This document shows, one piece after another, positions 30,162 through 63,487 of a stretch of 64,000 bases of DNA (within the stretch, counting starts at the first letter, position 1; every line of letters starts with the position of its first letter). The notes beneath the pieces are model-generated. The model made no database searches, was not told where the DNA came from, and worked only from the letters and a program-made list of their open reading frames with translations. The stretch comes from Planctomycetota bacterium. Its GTDB lineage: Bacteria > Planctomycetota > SZUA-567 > H5-PLA8. Location: the NCBI GenBank assembly GCA_038227875.1, contig JBBRPR010000012.1, positions 32,001-96,000 of the forward strand, in the 5' to 3' direction. Made by a program: the position numbers and the translations under genes.

Positions 30162-32501
30162 ATGAGAACCGCGACCGCACTTCCCTTATTGATTCTACTG
30201 ACCGGTGCGGCGCTGAGCATTTCGTGCCGCGCGGAGTCCGATCCGGACTTCGAACTGCGCCAGTACTCCGAAGTGTATTACAACGACGGTCGCAAGGAAG
30301 TTGGCGTGGTCACCCCGACCGACGACTCGTCCGTATTTAAAATCAAGGCGGTGCGCACGCAGATTTCCCACGACTTCAACATGCGTGACGTGAAGGAAAA
30401 GCGCGACCAGCGCACGGCCGACACAGCGATGGACGACTTCGCCAAGGACTGGAACAAGAGCAAGAATGCCACGCTGCTCCTCAAGCGCATGAAGTACGCG
30501 TGGGAGCATTGGAACATGCAGAAAAAAGTCGTGGCGCTGCTGGAAACGGCCGCGACGTCCAACGACCCCGACGTCCTGGAGTACCTCGCTGAGCTGTACA
30601 TGCAGGGCAATCGCGCCAGGGACGCGCAGCGCATCGGCGACGCCCTGGTAGCCGCCGCGCCGCAGCGGGCTCGCGCGTACATGTGGCGTGGCAAGGCGTT
30701 GCTGGAGCAGGGGAATCTGGCGGCGGCCGAAGGGGATCTCAAGAAAGCGTTTGAGATGGCCCCGACCGACGAGCAGGTGATGCTCGCCCGCAGCAAGTAC
30801 CTGGTCGCGGCAGGTCATCCCGACGAAGCCAACAAGATGTTGACGACGGTGATTTCCAAGAGCCCTCAAAACGCCAGCGCGATGGTGCAGCGCGGCATCG
30901 TGCTGCTCAACCAGGGCGATTTCGAAGCTGCGGAACAGGCGTTTGTCGCCGCGCCGCTCGACAATGACGAAGGACAGATCGGGCTGGCCGCGACGAAGCT
31001 GATGCGCAAGCAGTACGACGACGCCTACCGCATTGCCGAAGGCGTGCTGAGCAAGCATCCCAAATCGGCGGAAGCATACGAGATCGAAGCATTCGCGAAG
31101 CTGCTCAGCGGCGACAAGGAATCGCTCGACAAGTTCGAAGAGAAAATAACCAACGCGTTCAAAGAGCGCGCCGATCAGCCGCGTCTGCTGCTGGCCTATG
31201 CGGTTGGACTGGAACGCGAAGCCAAGTACATCGAGCTTGTGGGCGGCAAGACTGCACCCGACGATGCGAAGGCCAAGCGCGACCAGGCGGCGGCCAAGTA
31301 CAAGGAGCTCTTCGCCAAGGACACTTCCGACGCCTACTTGAAATACTTTGTCGGTGAATGGTTCTTCCGCAAGGGCGACTACGCCGCGGCCGAAGATGCG
31401 TTTAACAAAGTTGCGACGCTGTCTCCGAGCTACGCGCCGGGATTGGCAGCGGCGGGCGCCACAGCGCTGCGGTTGCGCAAGTGGGAGGCGGCTCAGAAAT
31501 TTTACGAAGCGGCCGGCGGACTGGATCCGTCCAGTGGCGAATACCAGGCGGGGCAGGGGTTGGCGCTGCTGGGCCAGAAGGATCTCGGCAAGGCGAAGGA
31601 GAAGCTTGGCCGCGCGTTAACGCTGGAGCCCAAGAACGTCAGTGCGCTCAGCGGACTCGGTTACATCTCCAACAATGCCCGCGACAAGGACTCCGCCGTG
31701 GCGTTTTTCGAACAGGCGCTGGCCGTTGACGGACGCTGCAGTTACGCCGCTGACGCACTGAAGAAAATTTATGCGCAGAGCAACCTCGACCTGGAGTACC
31801 AGACCTTCGACGAAAGTCTTGCGCCGCCGGGCTGGCAGGGCAAGGGGCGCGGCATGATCAAGCCGGTGTTGCAGGACGGCCACATCGTTTTCGCGGGGAC
31901 TCAAGGTTCCAGCCAGGGCGACGTGGTGGATTTCACCAAAGAAGTGCGCACCGATGCGTTCGTGCGGCTGGAAGCGGATATCAATGTGCCGGTCGGCATG
32001 CCGGTGACGGCTGGAGTGCGCATTTCCGGCGTCGGCGGATCGAAATTCTTCCTTGAATGGGCCCGGGTCGACGACGAAATGAAGATTCGCTTCCTGGACA
32101 ACACGGGCGGCACGGTCGATTTTGCATCGACCAGCATCAAGTGGCCGGACGACGGACACGCGCGCCTGGCCATCGAAACCAGCGACATGAAAGCCGGTGG
32201 CAAGTGCAACTGCGATCTGTCGATCAACGGCAAGAAGGTGCGCGGCGTACCGCTGATGCTCAACCGCACCAATTCGGTTTCCGCTGGCGTGTTCGTAATC
32301 GCTTCGCCGAATACCACGATCAGTGCGAGCGCCGACAACATCGCACTGCTCAGCCGCCATTCGTCGTCGACGACAGAAGGCACGGGCGCCGAAGCGATCA
32401 AGATTCTAAATCCAGAGGACAAGAAGCCTGATCCGGCGCCTGCTCCTGCTCCAGCTCCCACACCCGCTCCATCTCCCGCACCGAACAAGGACGGCAAATG
32501 A
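30162..32501 (+). CDS. Exported TPR-repeat protein with C-terminal beta-sandwich (lectin-like) domain
   Basis: Signal peptide MRTATALPLLILLTGAALS, multiple TPRs, beta-rich C-terminal region and PAPAP tail. Confidence 0.75.
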   Translation: MRTATALPLLILLTGAALSISCRAESDPDFELRQYSEVYYNDGRKEVGVVTPTDDSSVFKIKAVRTQISHDFNMRDVKEKRDQRTADTAMDDFAKDWNKSKNATLLLKRMKYAWEHWNMQKKVVALLETAATSNDPDVLEYLAELYMQGNRARDAQRIGDALVAAAPQRARAYMWRGKALLEQGNLAAAEGDLKKAFEMAPTDEQVMLARSKYLVAAGHPDEANKMLTTVISKSPQNASAMVQRGIVLLNQGDFEAAEQAFVAAPLDNDEGQIGLAATKLMRKQYDDAYRIAEGVLSKHPKSAEAYEIEAFAKLLSGDKESLDKFEEKITNAFKERADQPRLLLAYAVGLEREAKYIELVGGKTAPDDAKAKRDQAAAKYKELFAKDTSDAYLKYFVGEWFFRKGDYAAAEDAFNKVATLSPSYAPGLAAAGATALRLRKWEAAQKFYEAAGGLDPSSGEYQAGQGLALLGQKDLGKAKEKLGRALTLEPKNVSALSGLGYISNNARDKDSAVAFFEQALAVDGRCSYAADALKKIYAQSNLDLEYQTFDESLAPPGWQGKGRGMIKPVLQDGHIVFAGTQGSSQGDVVDFTKEVRTDAFVRLEADINVPVGMPVTAGVRISGVGGSKFFLEWARVDDEMKIRFLDNTGGTVDFASTSIKWPDDGHARLAIETSDMKAGGKCNCDLSINGKKVRGVPLMLNRTNSVSAGVFVIASPNTTISASADNIALLSRHSSSTTEGTGAEAIKILNPEDKKPDPAPAPAPAPTPAPSPAPNKDGK

Positions 32502-41851: not shown

Positions 41852-43567
41852 TCAGAAGAGGAAGTACCGCTGCGTCAGCGGCAGCGATTTCGCCGGCTCG
41901 CACTTCAGGTGCACACCATCGGCAAAGACGCTGAACGATTCGGGATCGACGGTGATCTTCGGCGTCGCATCGTTGAGCTTCATGTCGCTCTTCTTGACCG
42001 TGCGGCAGCCGCGGACGGCAATGCACTCCTTTTGCAGGCCGTATTTCTGAACGACGTTGTCTTCGAGCGAACGCTGCGAAACAAACGCGAGACTCGTGCG
42101 CGGCGTGGCCCGGCCGAACGCGCCGAACATCGGGCGCATCAACACAGGCTGCGGCGTGGGGATGGAAGCGTTGGCGTCGCCCATCTGCGCCCACGCGATG
42201 AAGCCGCTCTTGAGGACCATCTCAGGTTTCGCGCCGAAGAAGGCGGGCTTCCAGAGGATCAAATCCGCTAGCTTGCCAACTTCGACGGAACCGATTTCAT
42301 GGCCGACGCCGTGGGCGAGGGCGGGGTTGATCGTGTACTTCGCGACGTAGCGGCGGATGCGCTGGTTGTCGTTCGCGCCTTGTTCGCCGGGCAGCCGGCC
42401 GCGCTGCTGGCGCATTTTGTGCGCTGTCTGCCACGTGCGAGTGACGACTTCGCCGACACGTCCCATCGCCTGGCTGTCGCTGGAGATCATGCTGATTGCG
42501 CCCAGGTCGTGGAGGATATCCTCGGCGGCGATGGTCTCGCCGCGGATGCGGCTTTCGGCGAAGGCAACGTCTTCAGTGATGTTCTTGTCGAGATGGTGGC
42601 AGACCATCAGCATGTCGAGGTGTTCGTCGAGCGTGTTGACGGTGAACGGACGCGTGGGATTCGTGGAACTGGGAAGAACATTGGGTTCGCTGCAGACTTT
42701 AATGATGTCGGGTGCGTGTCCGCCGCCGGCGCCTTCGGTGTGATAGGTGTGAATGGTGCGGCCCTTGAACGCGGCGATGGAATCGTCCACGAATCCAGAT
42801 TCGTTGAGCGTATCGGTGTGGATGGTGACTTGAACGTCGTGCTCGCCGGCGACGGTGAGGCAGCAGTCGATGGCGGCGGGTGTGGTCCCCCAATCTTCGT
42901 GGAGCTTCAAGCCGATCGCGCCGCCGCGAATTTGATCCAGCAGGCCGTGGGGCAGGGAGGTGTTGCCTTTTCCGGTGAAGCCGAAGTTCATCGGCAGGCC
43001 GTCGGTGGCTTGGAGCATCAATTCCAGATGGCGTGCGCCGGGCGTGCAGGTGGTGGCGTTGGTCCCGGTCGCCGGGCCGGTGCCGCCGCCGATAAAGGTG
43101 GTGACGCCGCTGGCCAGCGCTTCAAAAACCTGCTGCGGACAAATGTAGTGAATGTGCGAATCGATGCCGCCAGCGGTGATGATGTGGCCTTCGCCAGCGA
43201 TGACTTCGGTGGTGACGCCGACGATCATGCCCGGCGCGACGCCGGCCATGACGTCGGGGTTACCGGCTTTGCCGATGCCGTGGATGCGTCCATTTTTGAT
43301 ACCGATGTCGGCTTTGTAAATGCCGGACCAGTCGACGATCAGCGCGTTGGTGATGACACAGTCCAGCGCATCGGCCTGCGACACGCCGGAGGCTTGGCCC
43401 ATGCCGTCGCGGAGGACTTTGCCGCCGCCGAATTTGCATTCGTCGCCGTAGACGGTGTGATCGCGTTCGACTTGGGCGATCAGACCGGTATCGCCGAGCC
43501 GCACGGTGTCGCCAGTCGTCGGTCCGAAGATGTCCGCGTACTGATTGCGTTTGATGGAGAGACTCAT
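41852..43567 (-). CDS. ureC: Urease alpha subunit
   Basis: [57 protein letters not shown]. Confidence 0.98.
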
Positions 43568-59578: not shown

Positions 59579-59751
59579 CCGCTTATCGAGAGTGGTCGAG
59601 GGAACAGGCCCTACGACGCCACAGCATCCGAAAGTGGAAACAGATGTGCCACCGTGCCTCTGAATCCGCTCTAAAGTGCTAACTCCTGCGATGCCGACGG
59701 AACCTTTCGACTTTTGAGTCGACTGGGACGCACGGATCGGAAGATGAGCGG
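59579..59751 (+). ncRNA. SAM-I (S-box) riboswitch
   Basis: P1 ccgcttatc/gatgagcgg; conserved ATCGAGAG, GAGGGA..GGCCC, ACG.CACAGCA, GTGCTAACTCC, AAGATG. Confidence 0.88.
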
Positions 59752-59963
59752 GGCGACAGGAATTCCGAGTCTTCCCCTGTAACCCCTTCCATCACGCGGT
59801 CAGCTCGTTGCCTTTTCCATCCGGGCAATGCGCGCTGAAAGCGTGGGCTTCATCTTTGCATTTTCTCGATGTGTTTTACGCGGGCTGCTGGATTTTCATA
59901 TCCGGCGCCGCGGCATGTCGTCGCGACCGGAACTTCTGGGTTGTTCGGGATCGGGAGGAAGCC

Positions 59964-61241
59964 ATGCCGGCGAAATACATCCGTGGTTTGAAGTGCCGCG
60001 AGTGCGGACGCCATTACGAGAGCAAGCCCGTCCACGTCTGCGAAGTCTGCTTTGGGCCGTTGGAAGTCGACTACGACTACGAACTGATTGCCAAAGACGT
60101 GTCGCGCGAAAAGATCGCATCGCGTGACCGCAACATGTGGCGCTACTCGGAATTTCTCCCGCTCGACCGCGAACCGGCCGTCGGCAAGAACACGGGCTTC
60201 ACGCCGCTGATCAAGGCCGACCGCCTGGCCAAGCGCCTGGGCCTGCGCGAATTGTGGGTTAAAAACGACGCGGTCAACTATCCGACGCTGAGCTTCAAAG
60301 ACCGCGTGGTCTCGGTGGCCATCAGCAAAGCCAAGGAATTCGGCTTCACCACTGTCGCTTGCGCAACCACCGGCAACCTTGGCAATTCCGTCGCCGCGCA
60401 GTCCGTCCGCGCGGGGCTGGAATGCTACATTTTCATGCCCGCGAACTTGGAACAGGGCAAGATCATCGGCACCAGCATCTACGGCGTGAACGTCGTCGGC
60501 ATCAGCGGCAACTACGACGGTGTCAACCGCCTCTGCAGCGAAATCGCGGGCAAGTTCGGCTGGGCGTTTGCCAACATCAACATGAGGCCTTTCTACGCCG
60601 AAGGCAGCAAGACGATGGGCCACGAAATCTGCGAACAGCTCGGCTGGAAAGCGCCTGACAACGTTGTCGTGCCGATGGCCGGCGGCAGCCTGATCTGCAA
60701 GATCGACAAGGCGATCCATGAATTCCAGAAGACCGGCCTGATCGATAAGAACAGCCGCACGAAAGTCTTTGGTGCGCAGGCCACCGGCTGCAATCCAATC
60801 ACGCACGCCGTCAAGGAAGGCTGGGAACTGTTCAAGCCCACCAAGCCCAACACGATCGCCAAATCGATCGCGATTGGCAACCCGGCCGACGGTTTCTATG
60901 CGATCAAGACGATGCGCAGCAGCGGTGGCCACGGCGAGGACGTGACCGACGAAGAATTGATCGACGGCATCAAGCTGCTGGCCGAGACGGAAGGCATCTT
61001 CACCGAAACCGCCGGTGGCGTGACCGTCGCGGTGACGCGCAAGCTCGTCGCGCAGGGCCGCATCGATCCGAATTCGTCGACGGTGATCTGCATCACCGGC
61101 AACGGTCTGAAAACTCTCGACGCTGTCGTCAACAACGTCTCCAAGCCCGACGTGATCGAAGCCAAGCTGAGCGAATTCGAGAAGCTCATCACCGTGCTGA
61201 AGGAACGTACGGCCAGCCAGCATGCGGTTGCCGCAAAGTAA
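59964..61241 (+). CDS. thrC: Threonine-synthase-like PLP enzyme with N-terminal Zn ribbon (candidate sulfur-transfer/homocysteine synthase)
   Basis: CRECG..CEVC, PTLSFKDR, ATTGN, EGSKT, SIAIGNP, ITGNGLK. GGGAGG before the ATG at 59964. Confidence 0.85.
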   Translation: MPAKYIRGLKCRECGRHYESKPVHVCEVCFGPLEVDYDYELIAKDVSREKIASRDRNMWRYSEFLPLDREPAVGKNTGFTPLIKADRLAKRLGLRELWVKNDAVNYPTLSFKDRVVSVAISKAKEFGFTTVACATTGNLGNSVAAQSVRAGLECYIFMPANLEQGKIIGTSIYGVNVVGISGNYDGVNRLCSEIAGKFGWAFANINMRPFYAEGSKTMGHEICEQLGWKAPDNVVVPMAGGSLICKIDKAIHEFQKTGLIDKNSRTKVFGAQATGCNPITHAVKEGWELFKPTKPNTIAKSIAIGNPADGFYAIKTMRSSGGHGEDVTDEELIDGIKLLAETEGIFTETAGGVTVAVTRKLVAQGRIDPNSSTVICITGNGLKTLDAVVNNVSKPDVIEAKLSEFEKLITVLKERTASQHAVAAK

Positions 61242-61324
61242 TTTCGAGTACGGAAAGAGAATTTCGCGCGCTCCTGGGATACCCAGGAGCCAGAGCCACG
61301 AGCTAAACGCCAGGAGCCACTCCC

Positions 61325-61897
61325 ATGTCCGTTAAAGTCCGTATTCCCGACGTACTGCGCAAGCTGACCAACGGTTCCGATCTCGTCACGGTGGAAGCGT
61401 CGACCGTCAAAGAGATGATTGATGCGATCGAAAAAGCGCATCCAGGTCTGAAGGAACGCATCTGCGACGAGCAGGGTAATGTGCGCCGCTTCATCAATAT
61501 CTTCGTCAACGAGGAAGACATTCGCTTCGACGACAATCTGAACACGAAGCTCACCGCCGGCGCGGACGTCTCAATCCTTCCGGCCATCGCAGGCGGCAGC
61601 AGCAAGGCCAAGCCCGCGGCGAAGGAATCGAAGGAAGCTGCACCACCACCGGCCGAATTCGTGCGCCGCGTCTACCTGACCTTCAACCGCGAGCAGTGCA
61701 CGCAGCCGATCATCTATCATATGGTGAAGAAATTCGACGTGGTCCCGAACATCCGCGGCGCGTCAGTCACTGAAGACCTCGGCATCATGAGCGTCGAAGT
61801 CAGCGGCACCCGCGACAACGTCGAGAAGGCGCTGGAGTGGGTAAAGAAACAGGGACTGAAGGTGGATCCGATTGAGATGAATGTGGTGGAGCCGTAA
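61325..61897 (+). CDS. MoaD/ThiS/CysO-like sulfur carrier fused to a NIL domain
   Basis: VKVRIP..LR...RRFINIFVNEEDIRF...ILPAIAGG, an Ala/Pro/Lys linker, then RVYLTF...PIIY...FDVVPNIRGASV...ALEW...GLKVDPIE. Confidence 0.85.
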   Translation: MSVKVRIPDVLRKLTNGSDLVTVEASTVKEMIDAIEKAHPGLKERICDEQGNVRRFINIFVNEEDIRFDDNLNTKLTAGADVSILPAIAGGSSKAKPAAKESKEAAPPPAEFVRRVYLTFNREQCTQPIIYHMVKKFDVVPNIRGASVTEDLGIMSVEVSGTRDNVEKALEWVKKQGLKVDPIEMNVVEP

Positions 61898-62038
61898 ACG
61901 TGGACTCACTCGATCGCGCCGAAGCGATGGTGGGAGGCCTGAAGTTCAAGTCTTAGCACCGGGACAAACATTGCTGCATGCCGCGAGAATCGATTTCGCC
62001 GGCCACACGATTGCTTTAAATAAACCCGAGACACTGCC

Positions 62039-63094
62039 ATGTCAATCGAACGCTACAACCGCCAGATACTCCTCCCCTTCATCGGTGAAGAGGGCCAGAA
62101 AAAAATCTCCGCGTCCACCGCCGTCGTTGCCGGCTGCGGTGCGCTCGGCACGGTGATCGCCAATGTTCTCGCGCGCGCGGGTGTCGGAAACCTCCGCATC
62201 ATCGACCGCGACTTCATTGAAGAGAGCAATCTGCAGCGCCAGGTGCTCTTCGATGAACAGGATTGCCGCGAGAACATGCCCAAGGCCGCAGCTGCGGAGC
62301 GCAAGGCCAAACAAATCAACTCTGAGATCAACATCCAAGGCATCGTCACGGATATCAATCCGGCGAATGTCGAAGAGTTGATCAAGGGCGCGGACGTCGT
62401 CGTCGACGGTGCGGATAATTTCGAGACACGGTTCGTGCTCAACGACGCCTGCGTGAAGCACAACATTCCGTGGATCTACGGCGCCGCCGTCGGTTCAACG
62501 GGCATGACCATGACCATCATCCCCGGCCAGACGCCGTGTCTGCGCTGCCTCTTTGAAACCGCGCCGCCGCCGGGAATGACGCCGACCTGCGATACCGCCG
62601 GTGTGCTCGGCGCCGTCACGGGTCTGATCGGAAATTATGAAGCGGCCGAAGCGCTGAAAATTCTGGCCGGCCGCCGCGAGGCGATCAATACACGGCTCTA
62701 TTCGATCGACCTCTGGTCCAGCGAGATGCATCAGTTCAAGATCGCCAAGGCCCGCGATGTCGCCGATTGCCCGTGCTGCAAGCGCCGCAACTTTGAGTTC
62801 CTCGAAGGGCAGGGAGCCAGCACCACGACCGGGCTCTGTGGACGCAACGCCGTTCAGATCAATCCGCGCAACGGTTCGAAGCTGGACCTGCAGGACCTCG
62901 CCAAGCGCCTGCAGGTGGCGGGCGGCTTGACCAACGTCAACGCCAATAAATTCCTGCTGAAGTTCAACGCGCCCGGCGGCGACGACGGCACCGGTCTGGA
63001 GATCACCGTGTTTCCCGACAGCCGCGCGATCATCAAGGGCACGAAAAAAGTTCCCGACGCGCGCACCGCGTACGCCAAGTACATCGGCGCGTAG
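62039..63094 (+). CDS. ThiF/MoeB-family adenylyltransferase (E1-like), no rhodanese domain
   Basis: RYNRQ, GCGALG, DRDFIEESNLQRQ, DNFETR, CLRC, TCDTAG, CPCC, LCGRNAVQI. Confidence 0.92.
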   Translation: MSIERYNRQILLPFIGEEGQKKISASTAVVAGCGALGTVIANVLARAGVGNLRIIDRDFIEESNLQRQVLFDEQDCRENMPKAAAAERKAKQINSEINIQGIVTDINPANVEELIKGADVVVDGADNFETRFVLNDACVKHNIPWIYGAAVGSTGMTMTIIPGQTPCLRCLFETAPPPGMTPTCDTAGVLGAVTGLIGNYEAAEALKILAGRREAINTRLYSIDLWSSEMHQFKIAKARDVADCPCCKRRNFEFLEGQGASTTTGLCGRNAVQINPRNGSKLDLQDLAKRLQVAGGLTNVNANKFLLKFNAPGGDDGTGLEITVFPDSRAIIKGTKKVPDARTAYAKYIGA

Positions 63095-63103
63095 CCGATT
63101 TCC

Positions 63104-63487
63104 ATGCCTGCCGAAAACGATCCCGCGGAGTGGGTGAGCAACGCCGCCTACTTGCGCGGGATCGCGTTGTTTAACCAGCACCTATTCTGGGAAGCCCACG
63201 AAGCCTGGGAGGAAATCTGGCTGGAAGTCGACGGCGTTCAGTCCGACTTTCTTCAGGGCCTGATTCAATCCGCCGCCGCGTTCCTGAAATACCGCCGCGA
63301 CGAGCCTGCGCCCGCGCTGCGACTCTACAACACCGCCAAGGAAAAACTCGACCGTTGCCCTGATCTTTATATGGGACTAAAGGTCCGTGAATTTCAGTCC
63401 GCGATGGCCGCGGCGCTTGCGCCGGTGATCACCGGGCCCTATCAGCCGCTTGAGGCGAATTCGATTCCTCAAATCACCACGGGCTGA
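63104..63487 (+). CDS. DUF309 domain protein
   Basis: GIALFN..FWEAHEAWEEIW, FLQGLIQ. Confidence 0.85.
   Translation: MPAENDPAEWVSNAAYLRGIALFNQHLFWEAHEAWEEIWLEVDGVQSDFLQGLIQSAAAFLKYRRDEPAPALRLYNTAKEKLDRCPDLYMGLKVREFQSAMAAALAPVITGPYQPLEANSIPQITTG

Follow-up and report, generated by a model that had tools for sequence, protein, structure and literature searches.

A SAM-I riboswitch precedes a probable MetM/MetO-type homocysteine operon with a carrier-NIL fusion in a Planctomycetota genome

The stretch of DNA analysed here (the window, 64,000 nt) comprises positions 32,001 to 96,000 of contig JBBRPR010000012.1 (C12) in assembly GCA_038227875.1, the genome of a Planctomycetota bacterium (9.3 Mb in 176 contigs, 88% complete). 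Near the end of the window, on the + strand, an S-adenosylmethionine (SAM) riboswitch of the SAM-I class is followed by a run of four genes. The first encodes a paralogue of threonine synthase (ThrC), called metM-like here after the MetM/MetO route discussed below (59964-61241), the second a ThiS/MoaD-type sulfur carrier fused to a NIL domain (61325-61897), the third a ThiF/MoeB-type E1 adenylyltransferase (62039-63094) and the fourth a DUF309 protein (63104-63487). The first-pass annotation of the window had described a riboswitch with four co-oriented genes, and all five elements were recovered on that strand. The intergenic gaps are, in operon order, 83, 141 and 9 nt, and no terminator-like site was found between the operon genes on the + strand. 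Public genomes were scanned for relatives of the locus, and 220 were obtained, the closest being Planctomycetota metagenome-assembled genomes; all locus counts given below refer to the best 80 of these 220.

The riboswitch aptamer (59580-59750, +) matches the Rfam family RF00162 over the whole model (positions 1-108 of 108) with 59.9 bits, where the gathering score is 44.4, and an E value of 2.3e-11. It carries long insertions in two stem regions, of 41 and 39 nt as compared with 13 and 5 nt in the model. SAM riboswitches regulate methionine and sulfur genes, and this aptamer is the sole SAM-I match in its own genome. It is conserved in the related loci L004, L005, L006 and L013. Furthermore, the riboswitch scan covered 43 of the 80 fetched loci, drawn from Actinomycetota, Chloroflexota, Verrucomicrobiota, Cyanobacteriota, Kiritimatiellota and Planctomycetota, and in 38 of these 43 (10/12, 11/11 and 17/20 taken together) the MetM-like gene is preceded by a SAM-I aptamer. 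The five loci lacking it are L007, L016, L015, L041 and L052, the last with only 151 nt of upstream sequence. In the window, the aptamer is followed by 213 nt of leader and expression platform (59751-59963, +). A segment of it near 59845-59857, GGGCUUCAUCUUU, could base-pair with the 3' strand of the closing stem P1, and no methionine-rich frame of at least 20 aa was found in the leader. The leader also contains the Shine-Dalgarno-like GGGAGGAAG (59953-59961, +); the ATG of the ThrC-like gene lies 3' of it, and the homologous proteins begin at the identical MPAKY. Two further RNA matches, both to the Rfam family Acido-Lenti-1, were seen in related loci, at L005:7310-7355 (-), in the metM-metO spacer, and at L022:3623-3683 (+), with 41.4 and 40.8 bits (gathering score 37).

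The first gene product, of 425 aa, belongs to the ThrC family of pyridoxal phosphate (PLP) enzymes, as judged from matches to Pfam PALP (240 bits), to NCBIfam thrC (TIGR00260, 288.8 bits with a cut-off of 167.1) and to solved structures in the PDB. It has an N-terminal Cys-rich ribbon, and the residues C11, C14, C26 and the lysine of the SFKDR motif (K112) are invariant. A tree was built from 50 rows out of 91 extracted sequences, after many Verrucomicrobiota had been thinned and L039, a split gene, had been dropped; the ThrC-family frames of L124 and L126 fell below the phmmer threshold and lie outside it. In this tree 44 MetM-like proteins (that of the window and 43 others) fall on one side of a branch of length 0.97 with an SH-aLRT (Shimodaira-Hasegawa-like approximate likelihood ratio test) value of 100, and six ThrC paralogues from the same genomes fall on the other, a split that is partly built in since sequences had been assigned to the two groups by their score against the query. 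It agrees with gene context, as the 44 MetM-like proteins adjoin carrier genes and riboswitches. The window protein lies inside this carrier-linked clade, the placement asked about by the first-pass annotation. The clade spans several phyla, and its Actinomycetota members share 51-54% identity with the window protein. In addition, each of five other genomes examined has, besides the MetM-like gene, at least one further ThrC-family gene. One open frame of 543 aa in an uncultured Actinomycetes (L032:5869-7497, +) holds a MetM-like enzyme followed by a carrier with a Gly-Gly end, and may be an enzyme-carrier fusion.

A thiocarboxylate route of this type has been reported in Streptomyces albulus, where homocysteine is formed from O-phosphohomoserine by the carrier MetO, the hydrolase Mec, the ligase MoeZ and the ThrC-homologous synthase MetM, as outlined in the GapMind 2026 preprint, which cites Hasebe et al. 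2024 (Appl Environ Microbiol 90:e01247-24) and describes MetM as "often misannotated" under the name threonine synthase. A SAM riboswitch lies upstream of metM in S. albulus (PMC12172450). The Streptomyces report on a thrC homologue and a carrier to which the first-pass annotation had referred is thus the study of Hasebe et al., which both sources cite. The window locus is probably an operon that serves the MetM/MetO route to homocysteine under repression by SAM, and its ThrC-like protein a predicted O-phosphohomoserine-dependent homocysteine synthase. The γ-replacement on O-phosphohomoserine with a carrier thiocarboxylate that had been proposed for this enzyme is supported by the clade in which it falls, by the conserved link to the riboswitch and by the content of the genome. 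In this regard, a gene for the homoserine kinase HomK is present (TIGR02535, 490.5 bits with a cut-off of 446.3; C10:33006-34184, +), while searches of the same genome for ThrB gave no more than a weak match of 33.7 bits for the canonical form and none for the alternative form. HomK would fill the homoserine kinase step, in agreement with what the GapMind 2026 preprint says on alternative homoserine kinases. The genome also encodes a complete MetH (1669 bits, C31).

The second gene encodes a protein of 190 residues with two Pfam domains, ThiS at residues 5-91 (47.8 bits) and NIL at residues 114-180 (57.1 bits). The metO-like carrier domain (residues 1-91; 61325-61597, +) ends in PAIAGG, with the Gly-Gly codons at 61592-61597. 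Behind it comes a Lys/Ala/Pro-rich linker that is predicted to be disordered (61598-61654, +), the proposed cleavage region, and then the NIL domain (about residues 111-184) with a short C-terminal tail and the stop codon (61655-61897, +). The carrier part matches the solved ThiS/MoaD-type carriers 4n6e_B and 3dwg_C (70 and 64 bits), the latter from what we take to be the entry of Mycobacterium tuberculosis CysO, in alignments that reach each one's own Gly-Gly; the NIL part gives a weak match to the MetN chain 3dhx_A (E 0.0017). The Gly-Gly of the window carrier is internal, with 99 residues of linker and NIL beyond it, and across the window protein and eight close relatives this extension, again a Lys/Ala/Pro-rich linker and then NIL, measures 88-100 residues. 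The earlier label "MoaD-NIL" named both domains correctly and left the masking of the Gly-Gly by NIL unremarked.

Carrier genes near the MetM-like gene were found in 63 of the 80 loci, and most of them end exactly at Gly-Gly and a stop codon. A NIL domain occurs in 40 of the 80, fused to the carrier in eight and encoded separately in 32 (23 in the order carrier then NIL, nine in the order NIL then carrier). At the genome level, 11 of 41 related genomes have the fusion, in counts that take in the own genome and the unpublished G017. A database search with the fused protein gave 443 matches at E <= 1e-5, among them records named Limnocylindrales and Omnitrophica, and ThiS and NIL were both present in 114 of the 120 listed. 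An origin of the fusion by sequencing or assembly error was considered and rejected, as it recurs in eight loci, 11 genomes and hundreds of database proteins. An alignment of 20 fused proteins shows PAIAGG unchanged in all of them, followed by a linker whose length ranges from a few to nearly 30 residues; the invariant end next to a freely varying linker suggests selection on a functional C-terminus. In an AlphaFold model the protein forms two confident domains (the NIL side at 110-184), and residues 89-109 have a predicted local distance difference test (pLDDT) score below 50, with the Gly-Gly inside this disordered stretch. Adenylation of ThiS/MoaD carriers requires a free C-terminal glycine, so the fused carrier must be cut to donate sulfur. 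The fused NIL domain blocks the reactive end of the carrier and would probably need to be removed by cutting first.

A candidate for the cutting enzyme is encoded elsewhere in the genome. One clear Prok-JAB (JAMM) gene was found, on C30 (61.7 bits), with the E...HxH...SxxD motif visible in its translation. Homologues of it occur in 11 of the 11 genomes with the fusion and in six of the 30 others, a comparison that uses related, non-independent genomes in groups drawn after the data had been seen. Four of these six non-fusion genomes have a MetO- or CysO-like carrier. In two genomes, G033 and G034, the JAMM homologue has a cysM-like gene on one side and a carrier on the other (L112, G033:C45 1433-4885, and L111, G034:C167 1931-4777, respectively); the carrier has 12 residues beyond its Gly-Gly in G033 and is fused ahead of a MoeZ-type E1, in one frame of 482 aa, in G034. 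In the own genome, two other carriers end at a free Gly-Gly and MetO-NIL is the only masked one that was found. The second MetO-like carrier of this genome (C4:239363-239641, -; 35% identity) has such a free Gly-Gly end, and the gene immediately downstream encodes a protein of 359 aa whose family is unknown.

The masking could also be read in another way, in which MetO-NIL is never cleaved and does not donate sulfur, MetM uses free sulfide or persulfide, and the carrier-NIL protein is a regulatory or scaffolding subunit. In favour of it, the Gly-Gly is blocked in every member of the fused clade, the operon itself encodes no protease (Pfam), some homologues have only a few residues between the Gly-Gly and the first NIL strand, and Na2S has been tried as a sulfur source in assays of MetM-like enzymes (PMC12172450, in the part concerned). 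However, we consider an uncleaved carrier improbable. The invariant PAIAGG, the presence of the JAMM homologue throughout the fusion genomes and the dedicated E1, which is kept beside the fusion in eight of the eight fused-clade loci with 79-91% identity, all argue against it, and cleavage of carrier fusions by JAMM proteases has precedent: in Deinococcus the JAMM protease DR0402 cuts the MoaD-MoaE fusion DR2607 and exposes its C-terminal Gly (PMC8832034). As in the window, that ThiS/MoaD carrier is made with a whole domain behind its Gly-Gly and must be cut, and the protease is an unlinked stand-alone JAMM; MoaX of M. tuberculosis is likewise a linear MoaD-MoaE fusion cleaved by a JAMM protease. 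The difference is that the downstream domain in the MoaD-MoaE fusions is MoaE, the enzyme partner of the carrier, whereas here it is the small NIL domain, which has no known catalytic role.

The third gene product is an E1 of 351 aa, assigned by Pfam ThiF (267.8 bits) and by family and PDB matches, and no rhodanese domain was found in it by Pfam. Its 79-91% identity to the proteins of seven relatives includes a C-terminal region of about 110 residues whose fold is unassigned; a structural model from an alignment of eight rows had a mean pLDDT of 46, too poor for reading this region. A ThiF gene adjacent to the carrier was seen in 10 of the 80 loci, all Planctomycetota. With a MoeZ-type query from a relative, the operon E1 was the best match of its own genome to the adenylation half. 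The E1 proteins of this genome align to that half only, and the rhodanese half matches a separate single-domain frame of 126 aa on C8, so the function of a MoeZ-type protein is probably covered by another architecture. The first-pass annotation had stated that no JAMM protease, rhodanese or sulfite reductase is encoded nearby; this is correct for the four operon genes (Pfam) and incomplete for the genome as a whole, which encodes the JAMM on C30, the rhodanese-like frame on C8 and a TIGR01977 cysteine desulfurase on C39.

As to the sulfur donor, a TIGR01977 cysteine desulfurase lies directly 3' of thiF in three relatives (L007:9110-10258, L008:9093-10313 and L009:9091-10311), which suggests cysteine as the source of sulfur. 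The own copy is 71% identical and unlinked (C39:70794-71942, -), beside a ferredoxin with two [4Fe-4S] motifs. The spacer between metO-NIL and thiF, which in the window consists of the 141 nt only, contains small genes in five close relatives (L004:8013-8384; L013:8168-9259; L010:8429-9099; L005:7958-8608; L006:7943-8191). One PD-(D/E)XK_3 protein and two PIN-domain proteins behind short frames are encoded there, and these inserts look like toxin-antitoxin or other selfish elements within a biosynthetic operon.

In the proposed mechanism, HomK would make O-phosphohomoserine, and the carrier, translated as a pro-protein of MetO, linker and NIL with the internal Gly-Gly that is seen in the sequence, would be cut after Gly91 to free its C-terminal Gly-Gly, the single Mec-like JAMM of C30 being the best candidate protease. 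The operon E1 would, judging from its family, adenylate this C-terminus, and sulfur, likely donated as the persulfide of the TIGR01977 desulfurase, would be added to give MetO-thiocarboxylate. MetM would then exchange the phosphate of O-phosphohomoserine for the thiocarboxylate sulfur, as in the published system, and the same JAMM may release homocysteine from the carrier by analogy with CysO/CysM/Mec. Methylation of homocysteine by MetH, for which the gene is present, would complete methionine synthesis, and SAM, on binding to the leader in which the aptamer is seen, would turn the operon off.

A different role for the ThrC-like enzyme, as a second threonine synthase or a threonine-metabolising enzyme with the carrier genes serving another pathway, is very improbable. 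The protein does pass the NCBIfam thrC cut-off, and threonine-related activities have been reported for a Microcystis homologue (PMC12172450, in the part concerned). However, C24 of the same genome carries another ThrC-family gene, whose product matches solved threonine synthases better than the window protein does (222 vs 190 bits to 6cgq_A; 221 vs 140 bits to the chloroplast enzyme 1e5x_A). SAM riboswitches, moreover, govern methionine and sulfur genes, and the only such SAM-I switch of the genome stands before the window gene, as one does before most of its scanned relatives; the enzyme clade is separate from the paralogues, and the MetX and MetA searches described below revealed no other homocysteine route. 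The window gene was rejected as the sole or primary threonine synthase of the genome, a possibility that the first-pass annotation had raised, given the more ThrC-like protein on C24 and the position of the window gene behind the only SAM-I switch. That the system makes cysteine or another thio-compound in the manner of CysO/CysM rather than homocysteine is scarcely credible: the best solved relatives of the carrier are 4n6e_B and 3dwg_C (the latter presumably CysO) and relatives of the same class have cysM-JAMM-carrier clusters, but the partner enzyme is ThrC-like and not CysM/CysK-like, the switch points to control by SAM, and MetH, which requires homocysteine, is present.

Several observations weigh against a MetM/MetO operon of the kind proposed. 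No Streptomyces record is among the best 80 of the 220 relatives, and membership in the MetM family rests on the Actinomycetota relatives and on the two citing papers. The Microcystis "ThrC", a member of the wider clade with a MetO-like neighbour and 51.6% identity to MetM, showed weak threonine synthase and threonine deaminase activities and did not act fully as a MetM in cells, according to PMC12172450. Searches of the own genome for MetX and MetA gave no match, an absence that is unproven at 88% completeness, and the single Cys/Met-metabolism PLP enzyme encoded there, which falls under every NCBIfam cut-off and has methionine gamma-lyase as its best match, could be a sulfhydrylase. With regard to carrier maturation, the JAMM gene of C30 is unlinked to the operon and has unrelated neighbours, its co-occurrence with the fusion is subject to the dependence among genomes noted above, and cleavage of MetO-NIL by its product is a prediction. 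With regard to the control mechanism, a terminator-like site was not found in the leader (59751-59963), and in a simple thermodynamic model the accessibility of the ribosome-binding site was 0.34 with or without the P1 3' strand. Lastly, DUF309 was found in none of the loci of the eight closest relatives.

The core chemistry is already published, and what sets this locus apart is the NIL-masked carrier, the E1 without a rhodanese domain and the unlinked protease. The locus shares with S. albulus the ThrC-homologous enzyme beside a ThiS/MoaD-type carrier, the SAM riboswitch upstream of metM, and a Mec-like JAMM gene and an E1 in the genome, of which the JAMM would act on MetO. As far as the S. 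albulus system is described in the sources cited above, it differs in that the Gly-Gly is masked here by a linker and a whole NIL domain, the E1 is in the operon and is without the rhodanese domain of MoeZ, the JAMM is unlinked, HomK and not ThrB would supply O-phosphohomoserine, and DUF309 is attached.

Two other systems follow a similar logic. In the CysO/CysM/Mec/MoeZ system of M. tuberculosis the PLP enzyme, whose substrate is an O-phospho amino acid, receives its sulfur from a protein thiocarboxylate, and a JAMM hydrolase works at the carrier C-terminus. The thiocarboxylate logic would be the same, and the window carrier aligns end to end with 3dwg_C, whereas the enzyme here is ThrC-like and not CysM-like, the predicted product is homocysteine and a SAM riboswitch would exert control. 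In the HcyS/HcyD/HcyF/MetY system of Wolinella succinogenes, homocysteine is made from a carrier thiocarboxylate, a masked Gly-Gly is trimmed by a JAMM protease and the E1 is dedicated, all of which resembles the route proposed here. In contrast, MetY uses O-acetylhomoserine as its substrate and only one residue masks the Gly-Gly, while here a ThrC paralogue is combined with a linker and domain of 99 residues.

The Pfam domain NIL is also found at the C-terminus of MetN, the ATPase of the methionine importer, and in MA1822, a protein with NIL and ferredoxin parts that belongs to the DUF39 homocysteine pathway (PMC5764234), whereas in the loci described here its partner is a sulfur carrier, either in one fused protein or as the product of a neighbouring gene. 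Because the domain occurs otherwise in these two methionine- and homocysteine-linked proteins, a role in metabolite sensing is the natural guess, and most likely NIL binds methionine or a related metabolite and adds control at the protein level. A more specific version, in which NIL is a pro-domain that senses methionine, homocysteine or SAM and gates the exposure of the Gly-Gly by the JAMM protease, with the separate NIL proteins acting as free regulatory subunits, is rather unlikely. If true, the riboswitch would be joined by a second, post-translational gate on sulfur flow into methionine, in which the maturation of a ubiquitin-like carrier is the controlled step. A complex prediction of MetM with the NIL domain, run without controls, gave a score of 0.17 and a mark of 0.32, and speaks neither for nor against an interaction. 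The literature search, whose scope did not take in Hasebe et al. 2024 and its supplements, which may bear on the point, turned up no description of a NIL protein as a partner or of a carrier masked by NIL.

In databases, MetM-type enzymes are annotated as threonine synthase and the carriers as molybdopterin-synthase subunits, as seen from the source names of the records and from the GapMind 2026 preprint. As a consequence of this misannotation of MetM and MetO, metabolic reconstructions of Planctomycetota, Verrucomicrobiota and Chloroflexota will wrongly predict methionine auxotrophy. The gain from the present locus is modest, as the masked carrier is a variant of a known pathway. The fused form does pose the question of whether a sulfur carrier of an amino-acid pathway is made as a pro-protein, by which enzyme it would be cut, and whether the cutting is under metabolite control.

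The last gene of the run encodes a DUF309 protein of 127 aa (71.8 bits, Pfam) and starts 9 nt after thiF. A search with an iterated profile found DUF309 beside the cluster in five of the 80 loci, which binning assigns in each case to Verrucomicrobiota or Proteobacteria. Another copy is encoded on C14 of the own genome. Its solved relatives are hypothetical proteins, and neither the structure matches nor the literature search gave a described function. DUF309 may be a loosely associated accessory or a simple neighbour, and its membership in the system is uncertain. A clpP gene (Pfam) lies 3' of the four-gene run. Elsewhere in the window, 43120-43414 (+) matches the Rfam 5' ureB small RNA family (RF02514) over its full length with 109 bits, and this match may reflect a conserved coding region of a urease gene rather than a small RNA.

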